From a virus: 64,000 bases of DNA. The stretch is taken from the IMG/VR virus record IMGVR_UViG_3300035701_000010, positions 33,657 through 97,656 of that record; one strand, 5' to 3'. The notes beneath the pieces are model-generated. The model did no database searches and was not told the DNA's origin. It worked only from the letters and a program-made list of their open reading frames with translations. The translations under genes and the position numbers were made by a program. Each line of letters opens with the position of its first letter. Positions within the stretch are counted from its first letter, which is position 1. This document shows, one piece after another, positions 12,447 through 64,000 of this stretch.

Positions 12447-13103
12447 TTATGGCTTTCCAAAACTCATGGTCATAACCATCTCCCCTACTGTTTTCATTAC
12501 GGTATCGTAGTACCGATCGACCTCTTTTGAACCGAAGTAATAGGCGAGGGCGTCTTTGGTGGTTTTGTAATCTCTACACAGCTTGCAAAGAATAGCAGTT
12601 CCTAATTCTATATTGGGTTTTATTTGATAGAGGTGCATTTTGTCAGTAATCCCAAGATCTTTAGCTTCCTTAGATCCAATCCAACTTTCCATAATCTGCA
12701 TCAACCCTATGGCTCCTTTTTTGCTTACGGCCATTTGATTGTAATTTGATTCTACTTCTATAATGGCGAGAATGACTAGGGCGGAAACTCTTTTTCTTTC
12801 TCCAGCTTCTATTACATGATTAGCGATAATGAGAGCGACCATTGGATCTAATCTAGGTTGGCGAGCTAAGATGATTGGAAGGAGTTGTGGAACAGTAAGA
12901 TCTGGAAGATAAACAATTCGGTCTACGTATTCAATTCTTGGATTGTTCATGAGATCTGTAATGATAGAATTTTTGATTTGTTGCTCGTAAATGGAGTAAA
13001 TGATGATTACAATAAGAAGCATGGCTAAGAAAATTGGTCTGACTTGCTCGTACATCGGATGTCTCATTGCAATTTCCTCCTTTAATGGTTTATTCTTACT
13101 CAA
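12447..13103 (-). CDS. Lytic transglycosylase (SLT domain) with N-terminal TM segment
   Basis: AIIEVESNYN...AVSKKGAIGLMQIM...NIELGT..L...ALAYY motifs. Confidence 0.9.
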   Translation of the reverse strand: MSKNKPLKEEIAMRHPMYEQVRPIFLAMLLIVIIIYSIYEQQIKNSIITDLMNNPRIEYVDRIVYLPDLTVPQLLPIILARQPRLDPMVALIIANHVIEAGERKRVSALVILAIIEVESNYNQMAVSKKGAIGLMQIMESWIGSKEAKDLGITDKMHLYQIKPNIELGTAILCKLCRDYKTTKDALAYYFGSKEVDRYYDTVMKTVGEMVMTMSFGKP

Positions 13104-31301: not shown

Positions 31302-34127
31302 GCCTTTCTCCTTAGCGGAGAGCCGAAGCCCTCCGCTCGGTTAGTTAAGCGGTGGTCAGATCCTTTCTTGGGTCATGCCTTCGCATGGTGGTTGTCGAAG
31401 TTCTAACTCTGACTTGATACCGCTTGTCTTCGTACCCAGGAAAGAGGTTTTGATCGATCACTACGTTGTTTCGTTGAAGGGTTGCTCTGGTGACATAGCC
31501 TGGATGGTGTTTATCTCCAGCCTTTACCTTTCTACTCTGGTCTACAATGTATTGCCTTAATCCTTCCATGATTGCCTCCTATCAGGCTTGGTTAAAAGTT
31601 AGACCTTGTTGATATGCACAAAGATATAGCTTCCGCAAGAGCAATATCCGACAGTCTTGCTGAAGAAGTGCCCAAAGTCTTTATCATCTTCAGGATTCAC
31701 GCCATGTTTCTTGCGATATCTTCGCGCCGCTTTCGTTTCATTAATAGGGCTATTGCATTTGTAACATCGAATAACCCCATCTCTGAATTCACTTTTCACT
31801 GCCATTGTTGTCACCTCCTTTCTAAGATAGGGATGTGCAGTCCCTTCTGTTAAGGGTTGCTAGAACTTACCTTTCTTCAGATCTTCCAAGTGTCCTTGAA
31901 AAGCCCATCGTCCATAGGCGATGTTAAGATAGGGCAATCCAAGAAGTCGAGGCTGAATGATTTTGCCCTGCTTAATGAAACGAAGAAGTATTTCTTTCGC
32001 CATTTCATAGCAGCTAATCCATTCAAGCTTCTTGTACTGATTGAGGAGATGGTCTACATCGTCAAGAGGCCAACAAGTCCCTGCAACGATGCATTTGACA
32101 TCTTGCTCATCAATCAACCCCTTAGCGATGTCCATGATGCATCCGGACAAACTAAGACCAATAAACCTTGCATTATCCATGCTAGTTCCTTTCTAGAACA
32201 GGGATGTGCAGTCCCTAGGTTAAAGGTTAGTCAATGAATTGAATGCTTGACAAGTCCAACAGATTGGCTTTGGCGAAATGCCGTAGATTCTTTACATTGC
32301 TACGATACTTGGCTAATGCTTCTCTTCTAGCTGTGATCCTCTTGATCATTTTCAGCTCAGCCTTTAGCCTGCTCTTAGCCATGCCATAATCGGGCTTCAT
32401 CTCAATCAAGTCCATCGTTGTCACCTCCTTTCCTTGTGGGTTTATTTCTGCTTATGCCGACTCGTTAGAGCAAGCATAAGCAGAAGGGCTAACATCAGCC
32501 TCCTTGAGCGGACATTAGCCCTTCCTAGTTATGCTAGAAGCAGACTACTTTTTGGCTTTCGCCTTCTGCTTCTGCTGTCCTACCCTAACCTTGCCATTGA
32601 CAACGGTTGCCGTTGCCATCCGGTTGGTTTGTGAAGCACATCCCCCAACCATTCGCTGTTTCGCAAATGGAGCCGCCCAGATAGAGCAACCAAGCCCATC
32701 AATGCGACCACATCCTGTACATGCCGACACAATAGCCAATCTAAAAAGTTCCATAGTCATCTCCTATTGGGTTAAGGTTATGAAGATAAGTTAACGATAT
32801 GAAGTAGACCGTTGTTTCTGTTGACAAGGACAACGGTCAAACCTCCGACATCCCTAAGATGTCAGTATGGAGGACGGATGCTAAAAGCTTTCGCTTTCGC
32901 ATATGGTCTTATGAAGCAATCGCACTTCGTAAGACCACCTTCGCCCTTGGGCATAATCGTGGTCTCCATAGCTGATTGATATAATCAGCCATGAAGACTT
33001 ACCGACCATGACCATGAAGCCAAGGTCATCGTCCTCGTGATCCTGCGTTCTCTCCAACGAGAACCAGAACCATTCTGTGTTGGCGCAGGTCCATTTGAAT
33101 GGTTTGCACCAACTCCAGAGCTTCCATACGAGGAAGTCTATCATGTAGTTCACCTCCTTTTTAAGGGTAGATTTAAAACTTAACCCTTAATCGAAAGCCC
33201 TGTTTCCAGGGCTTTCTGTTAAGGGTTACTCACCACGGGTACCATTGTCTGTTTCCGTGTTTCCATTCCCAGAAACAGTCATAGGCTCCGTAATACTCCA
33301 TGTTAATAACTTCTAATCTAAACCAATACTCTCTCATCTTTGTCACCTCCTTCCTGTCATGTAGTTTGCCATTTACCAACTATATATGAATTGTCTATAG
33401 TCTGACAAGCAACTATAGGCAAATTTTTTTTGTCCCCCTCAATGAAGAGGGGGACAAATTTAAAGGTTAACGGCTTCCAGGTGAGCAGTCCTGCACCATC
33501 GTCCTAAGTTGGTCTTGAGTAAGACCTTCATAGTCCGGGTCATGCAGGTCGGACAGTAGCTTCTTAGTATCGCACTTCGAAGCTACTATGCCACATGACA
33601 CGCACTTCTTTTCAGAAGCACGTCCATTAGGCATGTCCCAATGGCCCCACGGAATGCATCCACTGACTACATAGTGGGTGCAAAGGCAATCCCAATTGCA
33701 CGGATCACGATAGCGCATCCGGCACTTGGCGTTGATTGCACAATCAAAGATTGGCAGATCAGCGTGTTTCTTTGCCATATTGGTATCCTCCTTTCAGGCA
33801 AGTGAGTGTGAACAGTGACATCTCAGTAAGTGCCTATCCTTACTGAACTGTTCACACGACGGGTTATGAAGATAGGTTAATTAGTTCCCAAAGAAGATGG
33901 GAACGAGTATGGTCAAGTTCAAGAACCATACCACGATACAGATGCCTCCAACCACTATGTAGATCCATTCTCTCATCGTTGTCACCTCCTTTCCTAGAGT
34001 AAAAAGGTTTGATCTAACTATCAGTTCACAGACTATTTAGACTGCCTGCAAAGCATGGGCAGAGTACAGGCATAGTTATATGGCTATCATTTGCTTATTG
34101 TATTTGTGGTGTGGTTATGCAATTAAA

Positions 34128-34748
34128 CTACCATGTTACTGTTGCGTATTGTAGTTTAGCAATTGCATACTTATTGCAATATGCATGTATTTGTTTACCC
34201 CATAGTTTGTATACATACAGCCCAACCATAAACGTTTGCCTTATAGCACAACCGTATAGTATTGGTTGCACCATGCACACCATTGGTATATATGCAACAA
34301 GGTTAATAAGCTTTAGCTTTTGTGCTAACCTTTGGTATTTTGCACCCATTGCAAACAACGTGTATGTTACTGCGTATAGCATACTGTTAAAGCAGTTAAT
34401 TGTGCTTGGTATGTTATGCCATAGTTGGTTAGTGTATATGTTAACTGCTAATGTTAATGCTATGCCAATACTAAGCGCAATATATGGCAGCTTAGTGCTT
34501 TTAATTGGCTTGTTGCCCCATTGCCTATTGCCATACCAATTTAAAAACACAAAATATACTGTTATTGCAATGTTGCCATACCATGCAAACCACCAGCCAA
34601 ATAATAACCAGTAAATATTAATTGCCCACCCAATTTTAAAAGCATGTTTTACAACAGTTGGGCTTTTAGCCAAAAATGCAAAGTTTTGGCAGCATGTAAG
34701 CCCTGTGTATAGCCAATTGCAAATAATAATAATTACATTAATAAGCAT
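34128..34748 (-). CDS. Asp/Glu-free polytopic membrane protein, PnuC-like (nicotinamide riboside/vitamin transporter fold)
   Basis: 206 aa, about 7 hydrophobic segments; YG.IAI.VYF.FLNWYG..QW resembles the PnuC pattern; SD is AAAGGGGT. Confidence 0.55.
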   Translation of the reverse strand: MLINVIIIICNWLYTGLTCCQNFAFLAKSPTVVKHAFKIGWAINIYWLLFGWWFAWYGNIAITVYFVFLNWYGNRQWGNKPIKSTKLPYIALSIGIALTLAVNIYTNQLWHNIPSTINCFNSMLYAVTYTLFAMGAKYQRLAQKLKLINLVAYIPMVCMVQPILYGCAIRQTFMVGLYVYKLWGKQIHAYCNKYAIAKLQYATVTW

Positions 34749-34840
34749 TTAATTACCCCTTTATTATTTAATTGTTATATTGTTAAGTTAACAACCGCAC
34801 GTTATTAAGTTATGTTGTTAGTTAATTATTGTTGTTGCAA

Positions 34841-34915
34841 TTATACATACATGCAAATAACTGCAACGCCAAAAACGCCTAACCACAATACATACCAAAA
34901 ATGTTTGCTTACCAT
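34841..34915 (-). CDS. 24-aa single-TM peptide MVSKHFWYVLWLGVFGVAVICMYV
   Basis: Manual translation; preceded by G-run SD AAGGGGGGT. Confidence 0.5.
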   Translation of the reverse strand: MVSKHFWYVLWLGVFGVAVICMYV

Positions 34916-36452
34916 TGCGTTACCCCCCTTACTATGTAATTGTTAATGGCACTAATGCCCTACCCTATGCTATTGTTACACAACGCAACAATAATATATG
35001 TAGGTCATTTTCTGAATCCTCGAGATTTTTCTGGTCAATCTGGCCAGATCCTGAGTAAATCGGATAACCATCGGATAGCCCTAAAGGGGACGATCGCCAA
35101 ACTCTGAAGACCCTGAGTAAATCGATTAGACCCAAAGGAGGCATAGGGTTAGGACGGGCTGACCAAGGCTAGACGATGAAATCGACCAAGGGGGAGGCGA
35201 TAAGGCGTATAAGGGAGGTAAGGGGTTGAAGGAATCGGAAACGCAAAGGGGGAAAATCAAAAAGGGAACCCGAGAGGGTCACGAAGTTCCCCTGGGTCCC
35301 CAATAGGACGAGGGATAGAAATAGGCGGGAAAAATTTATCGAGGAGTTTTTCGGAAAAACACTGGATCAGTTTTCAATTCTTGAGCGGCTTCCTTCAATT
35401 GCTTCCTAAAACAGGCTTCGGGGGTTTTTCCATCTTTTGGAATGTTCCAGAAAGAAGGATAGCCCGTCTTTTCCCAAACCACCCAATCGATCAAGGCAGG
35501 GGTGGCTTTGGGAAAATATTCTCTTACGAGGCTTTGAATGGTGGGGCGTTTCTTTTTAGGACGCATCAGAAACTCCTTTTTGAATGGCTTCTTTGTCTAA
35601 GGTTCCCATTTCTCCACGAATAATCTTAAGACTGCCACAGTGTCCACAGAAATCTTCCCCTTTATTTCTTAAATCAAGACGAAGCTGTCCACACTGTTGA
35701 CAGAAGTATTCAGTGAGTTTCAATTCAACGAGTGGCTTCAATTCATTCATCACGCAACTCCTTTTTGGTTTAAAGTTTCTCGGCTAAAACCCATAGAAAC
35801 ATGAAGAAAAGGGCAATGACGATAAGGAGGGTGAGGTAGCAGGCGATTTCAGCTTCAATTGCAAACCCTCCAGTTTTTCTTGATTCTATTTTAATGATTT
35901 CAGCCCGCTTATTGTTATCTTTTTTGATAGGAATCATTTGGTCACCCAATTTGAAAAAAGGCACCAAGCCTTTTTCTTAGTCATGCAGTTCTTCCTCCAG
36001 CACAAAGGCATGGTCAGATTCGAATTGGTAGCCAAGAAAGAAGAGGTAGCCGTCGATCGTCTTTTCTTCAATGCCTTCAGGATGGGCCACATGCTCTTCC
36101 ATAAAGGTTTTGACATGAGCAATGGCGTTTTCAGGATCTTTGAAGAGTTTGATTTCTGGATCGGTATGTCGATCGTTACAATAAGCAATATAGACTTTCA
36201 TAGAAGACTCCTTTATTGGAGATAAATCGGGTTCATTTTTAGGAACTGGAGGAGGAAACGCAGAACCCCCTCCCCCTCCTCCCATCATCGTCACCATAAC
36301 AGCGGTGGTGCCTTCTCGAATCGTAATGGATTCACTAAAAGGCCGAATCTTTTTGGAAGCCCTCTTTTCCCTTATCTTGTCTCTAGCCCAAGAATAGACA
36401 AAGGCCGTAAGAAACGAAATGACTGGAACGAGCCATAAAAGATTTTGGTCCA

Positions 36453-37896: not shown

Positions 37897-38112
37897 CTAG
37901 TAACGATCTTGGGCATTTTCATATTCCTCAATAAGTTCTTGGGCCTTTCTAAAGAGACGTGGATATTTTTCTTCAAACCATCCAGTTTCAGATAAAAATA
38001 TAAGATAGTCCGTTGGAACATCTTCAATATATTCCCCATTGTATTTTCCAAAGGACATGATGAGTTTGCCACTTTTCAATTTATTGATATTTGTCTTGCC
38101 TATCTTTACCAT
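37897..38112 (-). CDS. Small FGKY-motif protein (DUF3820/ExoX C-terminal-like)
   Basis: MSFGKYNGEYIEDVPTDYLIFL. Confidence 0.7.
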   Translation of the reverse strand: MVKIGKTNINKLKSGKLIMSFGKYNGEYIEDVPTDYLIFLSETGWFEEKYPRLFRKAQELIEEYENAQDRY

Positions 38113-39035
38113 TTTATGATCCTTTGCAGTTCTTCTATTTGAAATTTATTTCTCTCACGAAGTTTAACAAGTTGAAGTTTATTGGTGCCTTTGAGCAGGC
38201 TATAGGCTTCTATATACCCTAAGATTTGTTCGAATGACAATTTTATTTTTGGAACAAATAGTTCCACTTTGGGGGGAGGGACAATGGTCGTTAAAAATTT
38301 TGATTCACTTATAGAACCATCATTTTTTGCGTTGATTAATTTTTGGGCGAGGGTTGGCCTTAGCTGGTCTAAATTGAAATAGACATTTCTTACTGTTTTA
38401 TAATGCGATATAAGATCGGATGCTTTTTTGGGTCCAATTCCTTTGACGCCTTGAATATTATCACTGGCGCACCCCATGATAATTTTCATTGCAGAAAACT
38501 GTTTTGGCGTGACTCCAAATTCCTTTTTTAAATCTTCTATGGAAAAATAAGTCAGTTCTGACCGTTTTAGCTTGCTATTAAAAACAGTATTGATCAGTTG
38601 GACATTGTTATCCAACAAGGCGTAGCAATCTCTATCATTTGTGTAAAAATGAATTTCACGATTATTATCGATTCTGTTAATAATATATGAAGCTACGTCT
38701 TCTCCTTCGTACGTTTTGGCGTATAGGGAAGGAATATTTAAGTTATAAAGAATGCCCTTAATCATTTCTCTTTCATTAGCCAACGATGGAATATCCTTTT
38801 TCCTTTTTTCTTTATAAGTCTGAATTTTATCTTTTTTGTAATAAGGTGGAGTATCCCATACGCAGATAATTGTTTTATATCCGTAGTCCGTTAACGAGAT
38901 CAATTCTCTAATGAATCCAAATATTGCACTTGTGATGATCTCTTCTCCATCTCTAACTACAGATAAATGGTTTTTGGCGAATGCAAAATAGGATTTATAA
39001 GATAGATAGGACGAGTCAATAATTGATATAGCCAT
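38106..39035 (-). CDS. 5'-3' exonuclease / flap endonuclease (PolI N-terminal, T5 D15-like)
   Basis: IID, CVWD, YKEKR, YEGEDV, NDRD, GCASDNIQGVKGIGPKKA (H3TH). Confidence 0.92.
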   Translation of the reverse strand: MAISIIDSSYLSYKSYFAFAKNHLSVVRDGEEIITSAIFGFIRELISLTDYGYKTIICVWDTPPYYKKDKIQTYKEKRKKDIPSLANEREMIKGILYNLNIPSLYAKTYEGEDVASYIINRIDNNREIHFYTNDRDCYALLDNNVQLINTVFNSKLKRSELTYFSIEDLKKEFGVTPKQFSAMKIIMGCASDNIQGVKGIGPKKASDLISHYKTVRNVYFNLDQLRPTLAQKLINAKNDGSISESKFLTTIVPPPKVELFVPKIKLSFEQILGYIEAYSLLKGTNKLQLVKLRERNKFQIEELQRIIKW

Positions 39036-51404: not shown

Positions 51405-53435
51405 ATGGTTAAGACGATTGGACCGGCAGTAGGGAGTAAAGGTCAGGTTGCCTTTAAAGAAGAGTCTAAATGGGGATTTCCATGTTCCCCTCCAGACAAG
51501 TTTGTTGAATTCACGAGTGAAGGAGTGGCAAGCGAATTTACCAATTTGGTGAGCGCTTCTCTTCGTTCGGATCGTGCCGTTCATAAACAAAGAACGGGAA
51601 CAGAAACAGCTGGTGGGGATGTAAACATGGAATTTGGTCCGGAAGGAATTGAGACTTGGCTGAAACATGCCTTGGGCAAAAAACGGACCAAACGAAAAGA
51701 CGTTGCGATGGTTCTGGTCTTCACGGGAGCCGGAGCAAATGTGTATGTGGATATAAGCGCTACCAAAATGACTTCGGTCGGGGTGACCGGCGGTGGCAAT
51801 CTTGATATCACTTTTGGAAACGGCCAGACGATGACCAACTTGATTACCTTGGTGGATGGTTCTTCAAAATGGAATGCGTATGCCCCTTGGGGAACCGGCG
51901 CTAACGGGTATTTTGGTCTTCCTGCGGCGTCTGCCAAGACAACTGCTGTGAAGCTTTATGGGTCAGCAGATTTTGATGGGACTGGAACCGTGTGCAAAAC
52001 GTCTGGTGGCGTTCTGAATCTAGAGACGTTATCGCATGTTCCGATCAAACCTTCAACCAATGCCGATCGGGCCTTTTTGCCGATTTTTTTCAAGTATGGG
52101 ATTTACGAGCACACGCTTGATGCGGCTCCGACCTTGCCTGAGGGGATGAGTCTCGAGATCGGACGAGATGTGGCCGCATTTAACTATTACGGGTGCAAGG
52201 TGAATAGTGTGGCCTTGACTCTGAACCCAAGTGAAATCGCTACAGCGACCTTCAATGTGATGTCTAAGGGAGCCAGCACTTGTGGGGATCCAGCGACTTT
52301 CGGAACCAATACGGGATGGGCGAATCCTTTTCTTGCATTGCGATATGCAGGAAGCGCTGCAAATGCGTACACCGAAATCAACATCGATGGTTCAAGGGAT
52401 ATGTTCCACTTCGAAATGGGAGCAGCGGGAACTGAGCTTGAGTATTCTTTCCCGTTTACGAGAGGAACCTGTACGCATGATGGGTTCTACTATGATGTAA
52501 CCACTCTGAAAGGGTTTATCGAGTTCCTGGATCATGATGGATATTTCTCCATGACTCGGAAATCTGGATACAATCCGAGTATGATTTCCAATACGACGGT
52601 TGGCGGCCTTGCTGATTTTGCTCGAACACAGTTGTTGGCGACCGCTGATCAAACCTGGAATTTGACTGCCAATCCAGCGATTACTCCGTTGGTTCGCGGT
52701 AACTACATCGGGAGTGATGTCGGAGAAAGTGTTTCGATTTATATTGACATCACAACGGTTGGAGCCACCAATGGAACGGCAGGGTTCAAGGGGTCCAATA
52801 ACAATTCAACATGGAGTCTTGAACAGAAGATTACCAGTGGCATTTGGTATACTATTAAGTTTAACGCCGAAGTTGATTCAGGTTTTCAAGTCATGTGGCC
52901 TGAAAGTTCAACTCAAACGTTGGGCGATACTTGGGTATTCACCAGTTTTAAGGATGAAAAAGCTGGAGCAACCTTCCCCGTGAGCGAACCGTTTACTGGA
53001 TTCCAAGGAGCGGTAACGATTGACGGGGTGGCTCAGGGAATCATGAGTTTGAATTTTACCCTGACCAACAACCTTTTTGGCGACAAATTTGAGCTCGGGG
53101 ATCGCCAGAGGGCGGCTTTGATTGAGCAACGGAGAACGACAGAAGGAACCATTAACACAGAGTTTGACAACCTTGATCTGTATCGAAAGTTTGTCAACGG
53201 CACGTCTGGGAACTTGGTGGTTTCGTTGATCTCTGATCAGTATGTGAATGCGGCTCATGGGACTAAGTTTAGCTTTACGGTAAGGCTTCCCAACATCAAA
53301 TTCTCTGGAGCTACGCCGGTGATTGGGGGTGCGGACATTATCACGACAGATTTCCCGTTTAATGCGCTGTATGATGATGTCAACGTAGTTCCTGATCTTA
53401 GAATCACGATTGTAAACAGTCAGGCATACGTTTAG
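51405..53435 (+). CDS. Major tail tube protein with accessory insertions
   Basis: KEESKWG, FTSE, AGGDV..E, Y.GCKVNS..L, F.LTNNL, R..EGTI..EF, F.V.LPNIKF; 676 aa. Confidence 0.85.
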   Translation: MVKTIGPAVGSKGQVAFKEESKWGFPCSPPDKFVEFTSEGVASEFTNLVSASLRSDRAVHKQRTGTETAGGDVNMEFGPEGIETWLKHALGKKRTKRKDVAMVLVFTGAGANVYVDISATKMTSVGVTGGGNLDITFGNGQTMTNLITLVDGSSKWNAYAPWGTGANGYFGLPAASAKTTAVKLYGSADFDGTGTVCKTSGGVLNLETLSHVPIKPSTNADRAFLPIFFKYGIYEHTLDAAPTLPEGMSLEIGRDVAAFNYYGCKVNSVALTLNPSEIATATFNVMSKGASTCGDPATFGTNTGWANPFLALRYAGSAANAYTEINIDGSRDMFHFEMGAAGTELEYSFPFTRGTCTHDGFYYDVTTLKGFIEFLDHDGYFSMTRKSGYNPSMISNTTVGGLADFARTQLLATADQTWNLTANPAITPLVRGNYIGSDVGESVSIYIDITTVGATNGTAGFKGSNNNSTWSLEQKITSGIWYTIKFNAEVDSGFQVMWPESSTQTLGDTWVFTSFKDEKAGATFPVSEPFTGFQGAVTIDGVAQGIMSLNFTLTNNLFGDKFELGDRQRAALIEQRRTTEGTINTEFDNLDLYRKFVNGTSGNLVVSLISDQYVNAAHGTKFSFTVRLPNIKFSGATPVIGGADIITTDFPFNALYDDVNVVPDLRITIVNSQAYV

Positions 53436-54111: not shown

Positions 54112-54942
54112 ATGCAATACTCGATTATGGCGAGACTTGATCCTCGCAGCCGCTTGGAGTATGTCTGCGAAAGTGAAAGAGAATCTGAAGGCAAGACGAT
54201 TTTCTATCTTAAGCCTTTGTCGATTGCTGAGTATTTGAAATGTGAGTCGGTTGGAAGAGTACAGGCGGTTAAGGTTGGAACTTTCACTTTAAGAGCTCTT
54301 CAGTACGGATTGATCGGATGGGATAACTTCGCTGACGAAGAAGGCGGGGTTATCCCATTTGATTTGAAAAACATAAGCTATCTCCACCCTAACATTCAAA
54401 TTGAATTGGCTGAGGAGATTGTAAGAATAGCTGAACTTGAAGGAGAAATTGTAGAAGAATTGAAGTTAGTGGCTCGGTGGGGTGAATGGTTGGATAAAAA
54501 TGAAAACAGAAAACATCAATGGGAATGTGAATTTTGTTTAGAAAAGAAACTCTTTAAAAATAGAAATTGTGATGGAACCCTTCCAAACAAATGCAGCAAA
54601 TGTTCAAAAGAAACACTTGAAGATGAGTGTCCGATATGTGGCGTTAAAACCATTCCACAATTTAAATTTCGGTTCAGTTCTACGATTACAGATTGGGTGG
54701 CTCGATGTCCGGTTGCCATGTTAACGCCAAGAGCAATTCAGCTAACGAATATTGTTAATTTTACCGATAATGCCAAAGCCCTTCCGTTTCATTGTGGAGC
54801 ATTCGAACAAACCTATTTCTTTTATTTGATTCGTATGGTGGTATTGTCCGAACAGAATGCAATTCTTAAGAAAGAATTAGATCAGAAACCTGACTTTAAC
54901 CACATACAAAAAGAGAGCAAACGACATGGCCAAAGTAAATAA
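54112..54942 (+). CDS. Tail assembly chaperone paralog with Cys-rich C-terminal extension (GT-like)
   Basis: EYVCE...TIF..K.L...LRALQYGLIGWDNF.DE.G paralogous to the upstream gene. Confidence 0.7.
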   Translation: MQYSIMARLDPRSRLEYVCESERESEGKTIFYLKPLSIAEYLKCESVGRVQAVKVGTFTLRALQYGLIGWDNFADEEGGVIPFDLKNISYLHPNIQIELAEEIVRIAELEGEIVEELKLVARWGEWLDKNENRKHQWECEFCLEKKLFKNRNCDGTLPNKCSKCSKETLEDECPICGVKTIPQFKFRFSSTITDWVARCPVAMLTPRAIQLTNIVNFTDNAKALPFHCGAFEQTYFFYLIRMVVLSEQNAILKKELDQKPDFNHIQKESKRHGQSK

Positions 54943-57900
54943 AGAAATCAATTTTGTCATTAATGTGGCGTATGCGGCGCAAAAGCAAATGAAAAGCTTT
55001 ACGGATGACATTGACCGCATTAGTTTAGCTGTTCAACAAATTGACAAAATTGGTGGTAGAACAGGAGCGGATAATATCGCATTGGCTCAAGATGCTCTAA
55101 GTGGGTTTGTTAAAGAACTGAGCGAGTTAACAACGAAAAACTTTTATCAGGGTTTTGAAAATCTGGCTACTTCTCTTAGAGATATTAGACTAGCAACGCA
55201 ATCGGCTTCCGGTTCGATGCAAGAATTGCATGGCATGTTTTCAATTATGGGTAAAATTGGTGATCTATTTGAGGGAAAGATTGGGAGTATTTTTCGGGCG
55301 ACGGTTGCATTGAGAGAGTTTGCAAAGCAAGTAAGGCTAATAGGTCGTATTGAAGATGATAAATTAGAAGCCATCACATTACTTTTTGATCGAATTGCGC
55401 TTGCTTTAGGTAAATTGGGTTCTGGTAGTGTTCTTCCGCAAATTATGACAACCATTGGCAGTCAAGCGACTCAATTGAGTTCAGTCGCTGATGCTATTGA
55501 AAGGATCGCCAAGGCATTAACTCTTGAGGGAGTAAGACAAACGGCAGAGTCTATATCTAGAATTGGTCCTAATTTTCCTAAAGGGGTTCTTAGTGGAGCG
55601 CCGGTTGCTGGTGGGGGTGCTGGAACACCTGTCGTTGGGATAGGTCCTGCAGCGCAGGCCCCTGTCACAACTGGCGGAGGAATGGGAGAAACTGGAACAT
55701 TTGCGTATGATAAATATGCCGACTGGGGGGCAGCTTCTCCAGCAGGAAGTAAGGTTCTAGATAGTATCTTCAGTGGGCTACAGAAAGAGTTTGGAGGTCC
55801 AGGAGGCGCTAGTACCTTTGATGAAGATATTATTGATACGGTCATAAGTTCTATGAGAGGCCTTAATGCCAGGATAACAGATAAAAGAAAGGAAATCCTT
55901 GAACAAGGGTTGGTTGATAATACGGCAGTTATGGAAAGATTGAATTCGACTAAATTTAAAGGAGGAGTGGGAGCAACCGAAGCGACGACTATTGCCAAAT
56001 TAACAAGTGGAGCAGAATGGTCTGAAGATCTTGATCTTCCAAAAGAAATGAAAGCATTGTCTTTTGCTCGTGGGACTGCAATTCATTCTGGAATGGAGCA
56101 TGTGATTAAAAACGTAATTACGGCTAAAAATTCTATGGGCGAATTTTTACAGAAAAATTTATATATGAGTCCTGAATTTGCGAAGGGAGTAGAACAGGAA
56201 GCTATTTTTGCAGCTAATTCATTCAAAGTTCTAGTTGGGGAAGCTATTAAGAGATCAGAAACCGAAGGAACACCTATAACGATGACTAAGGAGTTGAGCG
56301 AACAAGTTAAGATTCAAGCCAACACGATTCAGAAAGCTCTTATGAACATGTTTTCCCCTAAGATGATGGAAAAAATGAAAAATGATATATCTGTATTAGC
56401 TGAAAGTAGGGGGAAGACATTGACAGAAGCCTTGCAAGCTATGACCATAGATGTAGAAAAGACGCTACAGCCACTTGTTCTTTTGGATCCTGGTATGGCA
56501 ATCCCTAAGGGAGCATCTCCAGAACAGAAAAAGTTGGTTGAAGATATGGTTGCTTTGTTAAAAGTCAAATATAAAGATGCAAACAGCAAACTTCAAAAAC
56601 TTTTTGATGAATGGAATCAAATGGGGCTTATTGTTTTTTCACAAGCTGATCTTGTGGCTCATTTTGGTGAAGACATTGGCAAAATAATTTGGGATCTTAA
56701 AACAGGAACCAAAAAAACTAAAGAAAGCGCTCAATATCAAAAAGTGCAGGGATCGATTTACCAATTGTCTGAAGCTCAGGGAACTAAGGGCGGCGTGGGT
56801 AACGTTCAATTTGAAACTATGAACCCCTTAGCTAGAGATGAAACGAATTTAATGCGAAAAGAAGGTCTTAGTGAAGAAGTTGTAAAAATGACAGAAGTCC
56901 AAGAATTAAATCAAAAGCTAATAGAAGTAGATAGACAACGGTTGACAGCAATTGACATGATGAATGTTGCACAAGAAAAATACATCAGAAAGGAAGAAGA
57001 AAATCTTAAATTAACTCAGGATCTTAAAAATACATCAAAATTTTTAGCCGAAACAGTTTATCAAAGAGATCTTCCGCAGTTGAGTGAGCCTCCTTCACCT
57101 CCAGCAAAAGGAGGAGGTGGGGGTGGGGCAGGAGGCGGAGGAGAAGGAAAAGGCAGTTTTGGTTTTTTTGGTCCTGTTGGGAATCTTGTTGAAAGAAGTG
57201 TAAAAGGATTAAATTTGGGCGGCGCACAAGGAGAGTTGGATGCGCTAACCATTGCGGTGAGTAAATATGACCAAGCCGTGACCGCTGCTTACTTGAAACA
57301 GAAAATGTTTAGCGAATCACTTGATCTTTCTATAGTTAGGTTTACAGAATATGGAAAGATCATGTCTTCTGCAGCTGACGTTTTTTCTAAATTTGTAAGT
57401 TATCAAAAAGTTGGAACCACTCAAGAAGAATTAGCAACTAATGAACTAACGAGAGGGTTCACGCTCCGTGCGGCAGCTTATGAAAAATTGATCAACGTGA
57501 TGAGGCAGTATGATACTAAAATGGAACAGAGTCGCAGCCATGAAATTGATTTGGCTGATTTAAGGCAGACGATTACAAGGCAATTAGAAAAGATTCGACC
57601 TGAAACAGCGGAGGCTTTAAAGCCGGTTCCGAAGGAACAGTTTGAAAAGCGTATCTTTTCTAAAGAATTTCAGACAGCAAAAAGTACGGGGACTATAGAT
57701 GCGGGAAGTACAGAAACAGAAACAAGTATGATTAAGAATGCTGAAGCGTATCAAGCTCAAAGAAAGGCAATTAAAGATCTTACAAGAGCTCATGCGGATT
57801 TTTCTACGGAATTAGTGAACGCAATTAATAAGCAGGGAACAGTAAGAGAAGATCTTAAAAGAACGATTGATGTTATTGCTTCTGGTGATGCAGGGTTGGC

Positions 57901-60900
57901 GGCATCTCGGGTTGGGATTACAACCACGGCGCAGGCGATTGAATGGCTTACGGAGGCATTGTCTAGAAATCAATTAAGACAGATGGATTCTATTGGTACT
58001 ATGGATAGAGTTAAGGGTGTTACAGAAAGAATGAATGCAACGATAACCGCTCTAGGAGTTAATGTTAAGGACCGTCAGTTACAATGGGGAAAGTTGTCAG
58101 AAAGTTTACAAGTTTATAACAATGTTCTTAAGACTGGGCAAACAGAACTGAACATGTATGGGGCCGGGATGACCGCCCATCTAAATAAACTTGTGGAAGT
58201 GACCCTTGCAATTAAAAAGAATGAAGAAGCTTTGGCGCTTAATGAAAAAGCGATGGCGGCTAACAATACGGCCACGACAAAAGATGTGAAATTAGAAACA
58301 GATCTTATAGCAGTAAATAAAGCGCTCAATGTGGAACTGACAAAGCAAGCTGCTCAAGTTGCTGAACTTGTGGCTGGGAGAGAAAAGATTAGCAAGGCTT
58401 CTAATGAAATGGCCAAGACAGTGAGTAGCGTTCGTGAAGGGCTAGGAGAACTTTCAAAAACAGAAAAGATGAAAATTGGGGATACGGCTGAAGCCTATCG
58501 TGGTTTTTTTAGAACAACGCTTCAAGGCTTCGCCAATATGATTCGTTCGCAAATTGCGTGGATTGCCGGTTACGCTTTGATGTTTGGAACAATGAGGGCG
58601 TTTAAAGAATCTCTTATGTCTGTGGTTACGATTCAACACGAATTTGCTCGAGCAATGAGAACGGCTCGGGATGATGCCCTGTCTACTTCTCAAATTTTGA
58701 CTATGTTTAAGACGGAAGGTGTTAGCGCAATGATTCAGTTTGGAGAATCCTCTAAGAAGGTTGGTGAAACTCTCTATCAACTGGGAAGTGCAGGGTTATC
58801 AGCTACTGAATCCGTAGCGGCTTTGAATACAACGATGAGAATGCTTGTGGCAACGGAGGAAGATGCTCAAGAAGGAGTGAAATTGGTGGCTTCGGTTTAC
58901 AATAACTTTAAGGATACGCTTAAAGGGTCAACCACTCAGGCTGAAAAATTTCAATGGATTAACGACATTATGGTGAATACGTTTGACCGTCACCAAGTAG
59001 AAATGAATGAATTGAGAGAAGGATATAAATATCTTTTAGCGATGGGAAAATTGACCAACCTTACTTTTACAGATATGTCTGGAATTTTGGCGGTATTGAA
59101 TGACAATTTGATTAAAGCGGGAGTGGCTGGTCGTTCGATGCAAAGTGTATTGTCCGAAATTGCACAGCAACCCTTAAAATTTGCGGAAATGTTTAATATT
59201 CCAATAAACCCTGAAGCGCCGTTAGATGTTCTTAAAATTCTTGAAGGTGTTAACGCACAGATGAATAATCAAAAACTTTCTGTTGACGAATTGTCTAGAG
59301 TATGGGAAACAATGGGGTTAAGAGGAGCAAGAACTTTTGTGATTTTGGCTCAGAACGTTGATAGATTAAAAGAGGTAATCGAACGGCTGGGCAAAACTTC
59401 GGTTGGAGCAAACGAAAGAATGTCAGACATTATGCTACAGAAGCCAGATGTGGCATTTAGGCGGTTAGGAGAGGCAGTAACCGCTCTTGTCAGAACGGGA
59501 TTTGAACCGCTAGTGACTGTTGGATATGGAGTGGCTTCAGTTCTTGGAGATATAGGAATGAAGGTTGCTGGAACACAAAGCGGTATTGTTTCGCTTAGCG
59601 GTTCAGTGTTGGGATGGGCCACAACCTTTATGGTATTAAAATCGGCAGTTGTTGGATTTGGATTGGTTAGAGCTCATTATTTCACTAAACTTTCTTCAGA
59701 TAAAGAATTAATAGATCAGATCAAATTCTCTGTGTGGAACTTTGCAAAGGCGTGGGTCTGGGCTGCTGCGGTGATTGGAGTTTCTATCAAAGATATAGTA
59801 GTTCAAGTTGGATTATTAATTAAAGCAATGAATTTTTCTGTAATTTTGCCTATGCTGAAGCAATTGAATTTTACTTCCGCAACTGCTTCTCTTACTCTTT
59901 TCATAACTTCTTTGAAAGCATTAAATTTTGCTGCGCTTACAGCTTCGTTAAAAAATGTGGTGACACAGATTAGTGCCATTGGAGTGGCGCTACTTGGAAG
60001 TGCTACCCTTTGGTGGTTATTGATTGCTGCAACGGCGGTATGGGGTGCCTATAAGATTTGGGATTCAATTCGTATGACCAATGAGAAATATATTAACTTG
60101 ACAGGAGCAATGGTTGAAAATAATAGAGCTGCTCTTGAAGAAATAGAATCACTAAAGGAGAGAATAGATAAATATGCCGAGATTGGTGAGTCGATGAAGG
60201 GTTTGCGCGAAAGTATGAATGTTCGCCTTAAATTTAAATTGAGTGCGGAAGTTAATAAGCTAGAAGAGGATTTTAAGAAAATACATGAGCCAGCGGCTAA
60301 ATTTACAGATGCGATAAAAGAGATGGCTGACAGTTATATCGATAACGTTGAGAATATGGCAGAAAGAACTGAAAAGGCAACGACTTCTATTTATGAGAAT
60401 ATGGCACAAGCGACCAAGTGGCTCGGTGGGGTTAATGTAAACGCTTTTGATTCAGAAAAGGACAAGAAGGCGATTGGACAATTTGGGCAGGATGTCTTTA
60501 AACAAGAGGATATTATAAGGAAACAGATTAAGCAATTGGAAGGTTTAAAGAAAGCAGGAGAAGGAGTTTTTAGTTCTGAAACGGTTGAAAAAATTGATAA
60601 GAAAATTTTACAATATACTGAAGATGTAGATAAGCTAACTGGAGCGACGCAAAGAGGACTTAATGCTATTGGTCAAGCCGTTTTTGAAGTTAAAAGAGCT
60701 TTTGATCCTAAAGAAACGTGGCATCAGGGAGCATTTTTAGAAGAAGTAACTAAGAAGAAAATAATTTCGGAACAAAGTGAATATATCCATTTATTGCACG
60801 AACAGGAGGAGTTAGATAAGAGAATTGTCAAAATGGCAAAACTGCGGGGTGAAGTTTCTGTTAATGAATTTAAAGACAAGGTGGCAACCCTTATACAAAG

Positions 60901-63900
60901 CAAGGATTTAAAGAAAATTGATCAAGAAGTTTTAACGGTCGTAGAACGGTGGCTGGAAATAGAGATTAGAAAAGGACATGCCATTAGAGAACAGCGAAGA
61001 GCAGCGGATGAACTTTCTCGTTCATATAGAAATCTCATGGACAGCATAGTTAGAGCAACTGAAGATCTAGTAATAAGCATGGCTGACTTAGGACCTCTTC
61101 AGAATATTCTAAAAGTTGATGAAAAAAATCAGAGAAAATTTGAAGAAATCAAAAAATCTGTTCAAGAGTTCATAGACAACGCAGACGTTGCACCTAAAGA
61201 TATCGTTGCGTTGTGGATGACAGACCAGGGAATTAGCACGGCGAATGAGGCTAGGAAAGCATTGGATGCGTATGCTGCTTCTTTCGAGCGAGTATCTAAG
61301 GTGCAAGCAGAATCGGCACGACGAAAAGCGTATTACGAGCAAATGGTACAAGTTCGAGAAGCTTTTGATAGTGTTAGTGATAGTATTAAAGATTTTATAG
61401 AACAAGCAAAAAAGGCATCTGGAGTGGATGAAGATTTAACAAGTACAATTAATGGGATTACTAAACAAACCAGAGATTACAAACAGGCTATCGCAGATTT
61501 GAATGAAAAGCTTGGCTATGCGGAAACGAATGACATAGAAAGCATCAATATCCATAAAGATAAAATTGCTGTGCAAAAAAATGCCATTGAACTCACTAAA
61601 CAGAATATTGCCGCAACACTCCAATCGATGCCTATTCAATTTCAAAGTGATGAATTAACCAAAAAAATGGCAGATGACTATACTGCTTTAAATAAAACTC
61701 TTAAATTTCATCAAGAAGAGTTAGAAAAAGTAACTAAGAATGAAGAAAAAGATTCGGTAGCTAGAGCAACAAATATTGCAGGAATAAAGGATCAAATTAG
61801 TTTTCAGGCGATGCTTTTGAAATCTTATATTGCTTGGGGTGAAGTTCAGAAACGAGTTGCCATGAACAAATACGCCTATACCATGATGAAGGCCAATAGA
61901 GATATAGAAGAAAGTAGGTCTGACAAGTTAGAAGAACTTGATTATCAAATGAATGAATACCACACTGTTGCACAAGAATCATATCATCAAACGTATGCGT
62001 TAAGCAAGCAAACGAGGGTTTATAGAGATGAAATAGAAGCGGTGACAGAGCAAATTAAGAATCAAGAATTGGTTTTACAAACGGCTAGAAGTCTTGGAGA
62101 TGACCATAACGAAACAATTGAAAAAAGCATTTCATTGTCTAAAAAGAAACAAAAAGCCTTGCAGGATGAATACGATTTATGGGTGCGTGTTCTTCCCGAA
62201 TTAAAAAGGCGTATTGACTTGGATACTAAAATTGCTAGTCTTCAACGAAGAGCTGAAATTTTAACGGAAGCTGGTGAAAAGAAACGAATAGGAGGAGGAA
62301 AAGATTACGAAGAACAAAGAGAGGCGACGCGATATTATAAAGAAGCATTGGATGAACGTCAAAAATTAGACTTAGCGGCTTTTGATAAAAAAATACAATT
62401 GGCGGAAGCCGAAGGATTTTCAACGAAAGAGTTGACTAAACAGAGAGAAGAGTTGCAAAAGGCTCATCTTGTAGCCCTGAAGCAATTCACGTTAACGAGT
62501 CATCAAGAAGAATTGCAAGCAATCAGAAATTCTTCTGCCTTGGAAGCTGAAATGATTGTAAGGACCGCTCAGACTGCTACCGAAACAATTACGGGGCTGA
62601 TGAAATCCGTGGTGGTGGGGCTGCAAGATTCGTATATTCAATACGAAGACATTTCCAAAAATATGGCTAGAATTGGGACTGACACATTTGAAACAGTTAC
62701 GGGCGCAATGACTTCGATGGTGGAAGCGTGGATTACAAATACTGAGAAAGGTTCTGAGAAATACAAAGCCATTATGCGGGATATGTTGAATACGATAGGG
62801 CGTGCCTTGGTTGATTACGCCTTTAAATTGATCATGATTCAAATTCTTCAAAAGGCGATAGGAATGGCCGTAAGTGCTGCAGGAGGTGCTGCAGGAGGTG
62901 CTAGTGCTGGAGCATCCGCTGGAACCATTATTGGAGGATCAGAAGGGACTTATCAGATGAGTACAATTGTCCCAGCGTTTAAGAAAGAGGGTGGCTTTCT
63001 TAAAGGTGGAATCAAAGGTAAAGACTCTATCCCAATCTTAGCTCAGGAGGGAGAGTTTATTATCCCAAAGCGAACAGTAGACAAATATGGGGTTGCCTTT
63101 TTTGAAAAGTTAAGAAGTCGGAAATATGCGGAGGGTGGAGTAGTTGATAAGAAAGATAAGGTAGCGTATAAGCGTGAAGTAAAGGATCAGGATAGAGAAC
63201 GTTTTAGAAAAGAGATTAGAAAAGAAGGCTTCATTATTCCAAAAATACTCAAAGAAAGATATGAGAAAAAGCTTATCAAGACAATAGAGAGGCAACAGAG
63301 GTTTGAGCGTGGCGGGCTTCTTAAGGAGAAGATCACGAATGAAATGGAGTTCCAAAAAGGCGGAGTGGTTAGAAGTCAGATTATTAACAACAACAGAGAA
63401 TTTCAGAAAGGCGGAGTAGTCAGAAGTCAGATAACGAATAACAACAGAGAGTTTCAAAAAGGCGGAGTAGTCAGAGAAAGAGTTGAGTCGAATAGGCAAG
63501 AGTTTAGACGTGGTGGTTCGGTTAAGAATAGTGAAATGAGAATGGAAAGAATTGAACTTGATCAATTAGAATTTCAAAAAGGTGGAATGGTTAGCAATCA
63601 GATTACGAACAACAACAGAGAGTTTCAGAAAGGTGGGATGATTAGAGAAATAAGTGATACCAGGAGGTATGAATTCACTAAAGGCGGATTAGTTAAAGAT
63701 AGAGAAAAAATTAGTGAAAAGGAAAGAGATAAAGATAAGGTCTTTGTTGAAGAAAAAGTTCATAAAAAAGAAGTGGCTATTCCAAAATTGGTGGCAAGAA
63801 GATTAGGTCCGGAATTGACTAGCATGTTGCGGAGGCAAAAGCATGAGCAAGGCGGACTGGTTACGATTGTTAAAGAATTTCAGAAAGGCGGAGTAGTCAG

Positions 63901-64000
63901 AGAAAGAGTTGAGTCGAATAACAGAGAATTTCAGAAAGGCGGAGTAGTCAGAGAAAGAGTTGAGTCGAATAACAGAGAATTTCAGAAAGGCGGAGTAGTC
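54926..64000 (+). CDS. Tape measure protein (at least 3,025 aa, runs off the right window edge)
   Basis: Frame from ATG 54926 is the coding frame at the window end and is absent from the ORF track, consistent with no internal stop. TP901-type core at about 58600-59490 (LYQLGSAG, IKAGVAGRSM); C-terminal GG...DSIPILAQEGEFIIP. Confidence 0.92.
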   Translation, partial: MAKVNKEINFVINVAYAAQKQMKSFTDDIDRISLAVQQIDKIGGRTGADNIALAQDALSGFVKELSELTTKNFYQGFENLATSLRDIRLATQSASGSMQELHGMFSIMGKIGDLFEGKIGSIFRATVALREFAKQVRLIGRIEDDKLEAITLLFDRIALALGKLGSGSVLPQIMTTIGSQATQLSSVADAIERIAKALTLEGVRQTAESISRIGPNFPKGVLSGAPVAGGGAGTPVVGIGPAAQAPVTTGGGMGETGTFAYDKYADWGAASPAGSKVLDSIFSGLQKEFGGPGGASTFDEDIIDTVISSMRGLNARITDKRKEILEQGLVDNTAVMERLNSTKFKGGVGATEATTIAKLTSGAEWSEDLDLPKEMKALSFARGTAIHSGMEHVIKNVITAKNSMGEFLQKNLYMSPEFAKGVEQEAIFAANSFKVLVGEAIKRSETEGTPITMTKELSEQVKIQANTIQKALMNMFSPKMMEKMKNDISVLAESRGKTLTEALQAMTIDVEKTLQPLVLLDPGMAIPKGASPEQKKLVEDMVALLKVKYKDANSKLQKLFDEWNQMGLIVFSQADLVAHFGEDIGKIIWDLKTGTKKTKESAQYQKVQGSIYQLSEAQGTKGGVGNVQFETMNPLARDETNLMRKEGLSEEVVKMTEVQELNQKLIEVDRQRLTAIDMMNVAQEKYIRKEEENLKLTQDLKNTSKFLAETVYQRDLPQLSEPPSPPAKGGGGGGAGGGGEGKGSFGFFGPVGNLVERSVKGLNLGGAQGELDALTIAVSKYDQAVTAAYLKQKMFSESLDLSIVRFTEYGKIMSSAADVFSKFVSYQKVGTTQEELATNELTRGFTLRAAAYEKLINVMRQYDTKMEQSRSHEIDLADLRQTITRQLEKIRPETAEALKPVPKEQFEKRIFSKEFQTAKSTGTIDAGSTETETSMIKNAEAYQAQRKAIKDLTRAHADFSTELVNAINKQGTVREDLKRTIDVIASGDAGLAASRVGITTTAQAIEWLTEALSRNQLRQMDSIGTMDRVKGVTERMNATITALGVNVKDRQLQWGKLSESLQVYNNVLKTGQTELNMYGAGMTAHLNKLVEVTLAIKKNEEALALNEKAMAANNTATTKDVKLETDLIAVNKALNVELTKQAAQVAELVAGREKISKASNEMAKTVSSVREGLGELSKTEKMKIGDTAEAYRGFFRTTLQGFANMIRSQIAWIAGYALMFGTMRAFKESLMSVVTIQHEFARAMRTARDDALSTSQILTMFKTEGVSAMIQFGESSKKVGETLYQLGSAGLSATESVAALNTTMRMLVATEEDAQEGVKLVASVYNNFKDTLKGSTTQAEKFQWINDIMVNTFDRHQVEMNELREGYKYLLAMGKLTNLTFTDMSGILAVLNDNLIKAGVAGRSMQSVLSEIAQQPLKFAEMFNIPINPEAPLDVLKILEGVNAQMNNQKLSVDELSRVWETMGLRGARTFVILAQNVDRLKEVIERLGKTSVGANERMSDIMLQKPDVAFRRLGEAVTALVRTGFEPLVTVGYGVASVLGDIGMKVAGTQSGIVSLSGSVLGWATTFMVLKSAVVGFGLVRAHYFTKLSSDKELIDQIKFSVWNFAKAWVWAAAVIGVSIKDIVVQVGLLIKAMNFSVILPMLKQLNFTSATASLTLFITSLKALNFAALTASLKNVVTQISAIGVALLGSATLWWLLIAATAVWGAYKIWDSIRMTNEKYINLTGAMVENNRAALEEIESLKERIDKYAEIGESMKGLRESMNVRLKFKLSAEVNKLEEDFKKIHEPAAKFTDAIKEMADSYIDNVENMAERTEKATTSIYENMAQATKWLGGVNVNAFDSEKDKKAIGQFGQDVFKQEDIIRKQIKQLEGLKKAGEGVFSSETVEKIDKKILQYTEDVDKLTGATQRGLNAIGQAVFEVKRAFDPKETWHQGAFLEEVTKKKIISEQSEYIHLLHEQEELDKRIVKMAKLRGEVSVNEFKDKVATLIQSKDLKKIDQEVLTVVERWLEIEIRKGHAIREQRRAADELSRSYRNLMDSIVRATEDLVISMADLGPLQNILKVDEKNQRKFEEIKKSVQEFIDNADVAPKDIVALWMTDQGISTANEARKALDAYAASFERVSKVQAESARRKAYYEQMVQVREAFDSVSDSIKDFIEQAKKASGVDEDLTSTINGITKQTRDYKQAIADLNEKLGYAETNDIESINIHKDKIAVQKNAIELTKQNIAATLQSMPIQFQSDELTKKMADDYTALNKTLKFHQEELEKVTKNEEKDSVARATNIAGIKDQISFQAMLLKSYIAWGEVQKRVAMNKYAYTMMKANRDIEESRSDKLEELDYQMNEYHTVAQESYHQTYALSKQTRVYRDEIEAVTEQIKNQELVLQTARSLGDDHNETIEKSISLSKKKQKALQDEYDLWVRVLPELKRRIDLDTKIASLQRRAEILTEAGEKKRIGGGKDYEEQREATRYYKEALDERQKLDLAAFDKKIQLAEAEGFSTKELTKQREELQKAHLVALKQFTLTSHQEELQAIRNSSALEAEMIVRTAQTATETITGLMKSVVVGLQDSYIQYEDISKNMARIGTDTFETVTGAMTSMVEAWITNTEKGSEKYKAIMRDMLNTIGRALVDYAFKLIMIQILQKAIGMAVSAAGGAAGGASAGASAGTIIGGSEGTYQMSTIVPAFKKEGGFLKGGIKGKDSIPILAQEGEFIIPKRTVDKYGVAFFEKLRSRKYAEGGVVDKKDKVAYKREVKDQDRERFRKEIRKEGFIIPKILKERYEKKLIKTIERQQRFERGGLLKEKITNEMEFQKGGVVRSQIINNNREFQKGGVVRSQITNNNREFQKGGVVRERVESNRQEFRRGGSVKNSEMRMERIELDQLEFQKGGMVSNQITNNNREFQKGGMIREISDTRRYEFTKGGLVKDREKISEKERDKDKVFVEEKVHKKEVAIPKLVARRLGPELTSMLRRQKHEQGGLVTIVKEFQKGGVVRERVESNNREFQKGGVVRERVESNNREFQKGGVV
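63340..64000 (+). repeat. Coding tandem repeats (about 48-51 bp) encoding (N)NNREFQKGGVVR
   Basis: Multiple FQKGG(V/M)V units; identical 51-bp copies in the last 125 bp. Confidence 0.9.

Follow-up and report, generated by a model that had tools for sequence, protein, structure and literature searches.

We analysed a 64,000-nucleotide stretch of DNA (the window), the last 64 kb of the 97,656-bp IMG/VR viral contig IMGVR_UViG_3300035701_000010 from an uncultured sediment phage (CheckV completeness ~70%), and focused on a candidate nuclease domain inside its giant tape measure protein (TMP). The best overall explanation of amino acid residues (aa) ~372-645 of this TMP, and one that we favor with some reserve, is a diverged, cysteine-free RecB-family PD-(D/E)XK domain acting as a virion-delivered nuclease. 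The components of this reading differ in strength. The sequence evidence makes it very likely that the domain is a real PD-(D/E)XK homologue, and the domain is probably catalytically active, as judged from its conserved residues. The chances appear about even that, as cargo of the virion, it is active inside infected cells, a role suggested by analogy with known systems. The TMP gene, the predicted domain, and its motifs are located as follows.

54926..64000, plus strand: TMP gene of more than 3024 codons, an open frame that runs to the contig end, where its 3' end is cut
56039..56860, plus strand: predicted RecB-type PD-(D/E)XK nuclease domain, aa 372-645, from profiles, motifs, and ESM neighbors
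56069..56098, plus strand: motif I RGTAIHSGME, aa 382-391 (H387, E391), invariant in the three full-length TMPs
56450..56467, plus strand: strand 1 DVEKTL, aa 509-514 (E511, K512), E and K invariant in all four homologues
56639..56662, plus strand: motif II SQADLVAH, aa 572-579 (predicted catalytic Asp D575), A574 and D575 invariant
56684..56707, plus strand: motif III IIWDLKTG, aa 587-594 (D590-x-K592-T-G), D, K, T, and G invariant
56738..56764, plus strand: motif IV QKVQGSIYQ, aa 605-613 (Q608-x-x-x-Y612), Q and Y invariant

The strongest argument for a functional site comes from the comparison with distant relatives. When 1.84 billion cluster representatives were searched exhaustively with phmmer, three relatives only were retrieved, namely P0002 (2788 aa), P0003 (2477 aa), and a fragment of 560 aa, P0004. 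The first two are TMPs that run collinear with the TMP of the window (P0001) from residue 1 on, and P0004 is collinear over 545 N-terminal residues and stops inside the domain, before motifs II-IV. P0001, with its C-terminus cut, P0002, and P0003 form the set referred to here as the three full-length TMPs. These proteins are 23-29% identical overall (29% over 2,300 residues for P0001 and P0002), and ~16% of all columns are invariant among them. The invariant residues of the domain include R382, G383, T384, H387, E391, E511, K512, D575, D590, K592, T593, G594, Q608, and Y612. The predicted metal-binding and catalytic set (H387, E391, E511, D575, D590, K592, Q608, and Y612) is thus intact, and the invariance of the motif residues at 23-29% identity indicates that the site is under selection and, hence, probably active. 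A previous reading of the window without database searches (the sequence-only reading) had quoted five motifs at these positions, in one TMP frame and in the RecB order, which the coordinates confirmed; every residue that it had picked from the single sequence is among the invariant columns of the three full-length TMPs. Every homologue has the nuclease module at the corresponding position, with an identity among the relatives (27-32%) like that of the rest of the TMP, which indicates vertical inheritance as a part of this protein.

The motif arrangement was further assessed using shuffled sequences and profile searches. The full ordered pattern GT..H...E / D / [DE].K[TS] / Q...Y was recovered in none of 20,000 shuffles of the TMP. 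The Pfam profile PDDEXK_1 (PF12705) matched the region aa 301-725 with 24.1 bits (E 3.9e-5), above the gathering cut-off of 22 bits and in agreement with the family assignment of the sequence-only reading. The corresponding domain of P0003 (locus L002), a homologue with 27% identity, showed a higher score of 35.6 bits (E 1.3e-8). For scale, the only PF12705 match on the chromosome of E. coli, the RecB nuclease domain, had 29.6 bits, so that the scores of the two TMP domains are in the range of RecB. In addition, the window domain matched the 'exonuclease' family phrog_69 (E 7e-4), the motif I region of P0003 matched the 'exonuclease' family phrog_298 (E 2.2e-4), and the P0003 domain matched the Cas4-like phrog_1706 (E 2.5e-4). 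Among the 30 ESM-Atlas clusters closest to the window domain, 25 were PDDEXK_1 clusters (score 0.95), which we regard as a lead and not as a test. The NCBIfam scan gave nothing relevant.

The RecB family, which includes the RecB C-terminal domain, AddA/AddB, and Exo5 (PF12705) as well as the stand-alone phage exonucleases of PHROGs 69 and 298, shares the same ordered motifs, GTxxHxxxE, a strand-1 Glu, hhD, hhDxK(T/S), and QxxxY. The TMP motifs were paired by eye, and not by an alignment program, with those of the RecB domain from E. coli MG1655. By this pairing, motif I is GTAIHSGME in the TMP and GTFLHSLFE in RecB, strand 1 is DVEKTL versus VEMEF, motifs II-III are ADLV-(11)-IIWDLKTG versus IDLV-(9)-LLDYKSN, and motif IV is QGSIY versus QYQLY. 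The two aspartates D575 and D590 are 15 residues apart, compared with 13 in RecB. The RecB counterparts of the TMP residues are presumably H956/E960, D1067, D1080/K1082, and Q1110/Y1114, with residue roles assumed from the established literature. Compared with RecB, the TMP domain has ~60 extra residues between motif I and strand 1, where a helical insertion of ~110 aa is located, and ~20 extra residues between strands 1 and 2; these segments are helices in the first AlphaFold2 model. The TMP domain is also distinguished from the RecB family by its context, being embedded in a virion structural protein rather than in a helicase-nuclease or a free enzyme.

The label 'RecB/Cas4-like' given to the domain by the sequence-only reading holds in its first half, based on the PDDEXK_1 score and the invariant motifs, but not as a strict Cas4 assignment. 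Cas4 proteins (e.g., Saccharolobus SSO0001) and the Cas4-like PHROG 1706 belong to the same PD-(D/E)XK superfamily and share its motif set. In contrast, there is no cysteine in the TMP domain or in any of the three full-length TMPs, and the domain has no CRISPR context. Lack of cysteines excludes a 4Fe-4S cluster, and the domain is therefore RecB/AddA-like, whereas the Cas4 candidate was rejected.

The identity of the carrier protein is supported by several features. The frame matches PF10145 (PhageMin_Tail) with 68.1 bits and the tape-measure PHROG 167/28, and its homologue P0002 is labelled as a TP901 family TMP in its source record. The core profile, the position after the tail tube and tail chaperone genes, and the hydrophobic segments expected of a TMP are all present. 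Apart from the nuclease domain, the visible part of the TMP has the following architecture.

54926..55573, plus strand: N-terminal helical module, aa 1-216, from collinear BLAST matches that start at residue 1 and are common to all four homologues
55574..55702, plus strand: Gly/Pro-rich linker 1, aa 217-259, from the translation
56861..57088, plus strand: helical, coiled-coil-like spacer, aa 646-721, from the translation, with a helix at aa 650-679 in a low-confidence AlphaFold2 model
57089..57154, plus strand: Gly-rich linker 2, aa 722-743, from the translation
58730..59194, plus strand: conserved tape-measure core (PhageMin_Tail), aa 1269-1423, from PF10145
59756..60043, plus strand: hydrophobic membrane-type segments, aa 1611-1644 and 1682-1706, from a Kyte-Doolittle scan

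The core at aa 1269-1423 is the most conserved block among the homologues. The domain lies well upstream of this core and is flanked by the two linkers, both of which had been proposed from the letters alone and are borne out by these coordinates. The region preceding the domain (aa 1-371) matched no family, and its ESM Atlas neighbors were unnamed viral clusters only. As far as the TMP is visible, the predicted nuclease is its only recognizable enzyme, and no muralytic domain was observed.

TMPs occupy the inside of the tail tube, with their C-termini at the tail tip; at infection, they are the first to be expelled and contribute to the DNA channel. In the proposed mechanism, the nuclease module, which is located 370-650 residues from the N-terminus and attached by flexible Gly-rich linkers, would be stored in an unfolded or extended form near the leading DNA end. 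At infection, it would leave the tail just ahead of the DNA, refold at or inside the cell envelope, and cut DNA by the Mg2+-dependent, RecB-type two-acid-plus-lysine mechanism. Its preferred target would be the incoming end of the phage genome, which it would resect 5' or trim at the entry pore, and host DNA would come second. The incoming end is favored because of the position of the domain and because 5'-end chemistry is typical of the family. Delivery with the virion and action on either host DNA or the genome end that enters had both been suggested by the sequence-only reading, and by analogy with known TMPs both may apply. The possible end processing could involve 5'-strand resection for circularization or for recombination-primed replication, or removal of a terminal block. 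It is rather doubtful, although conceivable, that a TMP-tethered nuclease at the entry pore processes the phage's own incoming end before phage gene expression, which would constitute a new step of genome delivery. If so, the nuclease cargo would be a stand-alone module, independent of the RNA-polymerase cargo of TMPs.

Known TMP cargo consists of enzymes that act on the cell wall and, in a single case that was studied, of an RNA polymerase. Muralytic cargo is represented by T5 pb2 and by the Rpf motif of the mycobacteriophage TM4 TMP. Like these proteins, the TMP of the window contains an enzyme domain inside the ruler protein, predicted for use during entry. However, the T5 and TM4 domains act on peptidoglycan and are central or C-terminal and tip-proximal, whereas the domain described here is a putative DNA enzyme in a head-proximal position. 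A closer likeness is provided by the Thermus phage P23-45 TMP gp96, another giant TMP with a nucleic-acid enzyme in its N-terminal portion. The N-terminal part of gp96 is an active virion RNA polymerase, which is present in virions within the full-length protein and was proposed to act at the TMP pore during DNA entry (PMC10770324). The cargo of the window's TMP is a predicted nuclease rather than a polymerase, and no nuclease is mentioned for P23-45 (PMC10770324). For phage 812, lambda, and Pam3, cryo-electron microscopy has demonstrated contact of the TMP N-termini with the end of the DNA inside the tail tube (PMC12886913). The P23-45 gp96 cargo (PMC10770324) and this contact in phage 812 (PMC12886913) make delivery of the nuclease into the cell plausible.

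The DxDxD metal-binding signature was not found in P0001, P0002, or P0003, and in the TMP of the window no family is matched by the 371 residues that precede the domain; this TMP therefore lacks an RNA-polymerase module of the gp96 type. This candidate was rejected on the missing DxDxD string. The presence of the predicted nuclease without a polymerase module suggests that the two cargoes are separable. In the titles and abstracts of the literature, we found no description of a nuclease inside a TMP, only co-mentions of the two. Both TMPs with enzyme cargo and RecB-family nucleases are already known, and the present TMPs add a lineage in which a putative RecB-family nuclease is the only recognizable enzyme cargo. 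A DNA-cutting domain would represent a third class of TMP cargo, by which some phages would bring in a ready-made nuclease together with their DNA. Such a cargo bears on the processing and protection of incoming linear genomes in the first seconds of infection, on the attack of host DNA before phage gene expression, and on the storage of a globular enzyme in a 3-4 nm tube.

Another role of the domain could be that of a DNA-end holder, which grips the leading end so that the DNA is drawn behind the TMP or is protected from RecBCD and similar exonucleases of the host, while cutting would be minor or absent. RecB-family domains are established end-binding modules, the domain is located in the head-proximal part of the TMP, and the DNA-end contacts of the TMP N-termini in phage 812, lambda, and Pam3 are consistent with such a function. 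Nevertheless, we consider pure end holding unlikely. Binding-only derivatives usually lose some of the catalytic residues, whereas all of them, including K592 and both aspartates, are invariant in the TMPs at 23-29% identity; furthermore, the domain begins 370 residues from the N-terminus and not at the N-terminus itself.

The intact catalytic set is also compatible with a host-attack or counter-defense weapon, which would be released in the cytoplasm and degrade the chromosome, plasmids, or defense nucleic acids before phage expression, the phage's own DNA being spared by modification or sequence avoidance. Three features of the window are relevant to this possibility.

38106-39035, minus strand: FEN-type 5'-3' exonuclease (PF02739 and PF01367)
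7794-9647: NAD-dependent ligase
34088-35005: GA/TC-free island of 918 bp

The exonuclease and the ligase are T5-like traits, early breakdown of host DNA is established for T5, and the GA/TC-free island might, as speculated in the sequence-only reading, be related to self-protection. However, this island is too short to protect the genome, and nothing places it at a genome end. RecB-family nucleases are not known as sequence-specific enzymes, and TMPs are present in few copies per virion (three to six). A primary role as a weapon against host DNA therefore appears improbable, and a virion-delivered nuclease acting first on the incoming phage end is preferred.

A further question is whether the domain is a nuclease at all, as opposed to chance motif and profile matches in a long helix-rich protein, or to a decayed relic with the role of a structural spacer. 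Several results weigh against the proposed virion-delivered nuclease, and a part of them favors this more skeptical explanation. The core-only pattern D / DxK / QxxxY occurred in 8% of the TMP shuffles; being this common by chance, the pattern is weak without motif I and without conservation. The profile scores are near thresholds. PDDEXK_1 was not reported on scans of the whole 3024-aa TMP, whole P0002, or whole P0003, the six-frame match at 56507-56926 reached 18.7 bits, which is below the cut-off, and the Pfam envelope in the window spans only the half with motifs II-IV. Sequence and profile searches retrieved no nuclease structure from the PDB, although two of the search profiles contained full-length TMP rows besides the domain. 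A local hidden Markov model built from the four TMP domains did not match RecB, and the hhalign comparison of the domain pair with the E. coli RecB nuclease domain paired only motif I (GTFLHSLFE), with a probability of 1.6%. The TMP domain is thus too diverged from the RecB family for any pairwise or PDB match. Finally, with regard to delivery, a tail tube of ~3-4 nm is too narrow for a trimer of 30-kDa domains in the folded state.

The AlphaFold2 model of the window domain, based on a 4-row alignment, had a predicted local distance difference test (pLDDT) score of 57.0 and a predicted template modeling (pTM) score of 0.53, with one of the five models above 36. The model of the P0003 domain, based on a 4-sequence alignment, had a pLDDT of 56.5, with its core below 50. 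At low confidence, the first model placed strands at aa 507-519 (over DVEKTL), 568-579, and 586-590. The D motif and the DxK motif were placed on two neighboring strands in either model, and the strand order would fit the PD-(D/E)XK family, both with low to moderate confidence. Foldseek searches of the PDB and VIA-align wide searches with the first model returned helical-bundle matches only, which originated from the insertion. With models of such low confidence, a restriction-endonuclease-like alpha-beta-beta-beta-alpha-beta fold with clustered D/D/K residues is putative.

Against the absence of a real nuclease stand the full pattern that no shuffle reproduced, the independent and stronger match of the diverged homologue P0003, the agreement of three profile and embedding resources, and the invariance of all eight motif residues compared with a background of 16%. 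A chance motif match was rejected, and the absence of a real nuclease domain seems quite improbable. A selfish insertion of the homing-endonuclease or intein type, without any role in infection, can practically be dismissed: the linkers set the domain off, and nuclease genes are reportedly often found at mosaic boundaries of phage structural genes, but the domain is in frame without a separate start, the conservation that it shares with the rest of the TMP in every homologue argues against recent insertion, and the whole TMP contains no cysteine (Ser/Thr splice junctions and other intein motifs were not looked for).

The TMP lineage carrying the predicted nuclease domain is rare. No relative was detected in the phage collection at the DNA or protein level, nor by word-indexed protein searches, for which the TMP region and a 2-sequence domain profile at near and longer lengths served as queries. 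Viral contigs gave no match to the window domain or to P0002, and when scanned with P0003 and the domain alignment they yielded only the contig of P0003 (L002) and a short fragment of it (L003). In the metagenome scan, only the P0003 contig and a 99%-identical copy of the phage (L004) were detected. No match was obtained among 185,579 species genomes, which thus provided no prophage relative and no clue to the host. The L004 copy (Ga0315274_10106410) is a 3.6-kb sequence from another sample that contains the 99%-identical TMP start including the nuclease domain, showing that this phage is present in two samples or more.

The TMP gene belongs to a structural module that extends on the plus strand from 39.2 kb on and includes the small and large terminase, portal, protease, and major head protein genes. 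Two small open reading frames between the tail tube gene and the TMP gene occupy the position of tail chaperones. No sheath gene was recognized in the structural module, suggesting that the tail is likely long and non-contractile. A six-frame search detected no second PDDEXK_1 gene on the contig. Other features of the window are listed below.

51405-53435, plus strand: tail tube protein of 676 aa (PF18906), which precedes the TMP gene
12447-13103, minus strand: 218-aa protein with a C-terminal half like transglycosylases or lytic tail proteins (PHROGs 2013, 669, and 38211)
3-1055: helicase

The 676-aa tail tube protein is very long. Phage_tube_2 matched two of its stretches, the best of which corresponds to residues 10-332, and the 'minor tail protein' family phrog_290 matched residues 407-674. 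These matches suggest that the tube protein has a large additional segment at its C-terminus. The transglycosylase-like 218-aa protein is encoded among minus-strand genes, far from the tail module. With the FEN-type exonuclease, the NAD-dependent ligase, and the helicase, the replication set of the phage looks T5-like.

The giant TMPs showed additional peculiarities of sequence. Cysteines are completely missing from all three proteins (>3024, 2788, and 2477 aa), which is striking at such a size; this avoidance may be related to unfolded passage through the tail tube or periplasm. Just upstream of the visible end of the window's TMP, at approximately aa 2690-2740, we identified a unit of the form 'GG..G.KDS.P......GE..IP...V..YG'. 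The 'GG..G.KDS.P' unit in P0002 matches the repeats of a solved tape measure protein (PDB 8zdo gp16). This unit is followed by tandem 51-bp (17-codon) repeats at 63353-63475 and 63874-64000, which encode 'EFQKGGVVR...NNR' units at the visible TMP end. The copies of the last repeat array are 100% identical and extend into the contig end, where the 51-bp repeats may have broken the assembly.

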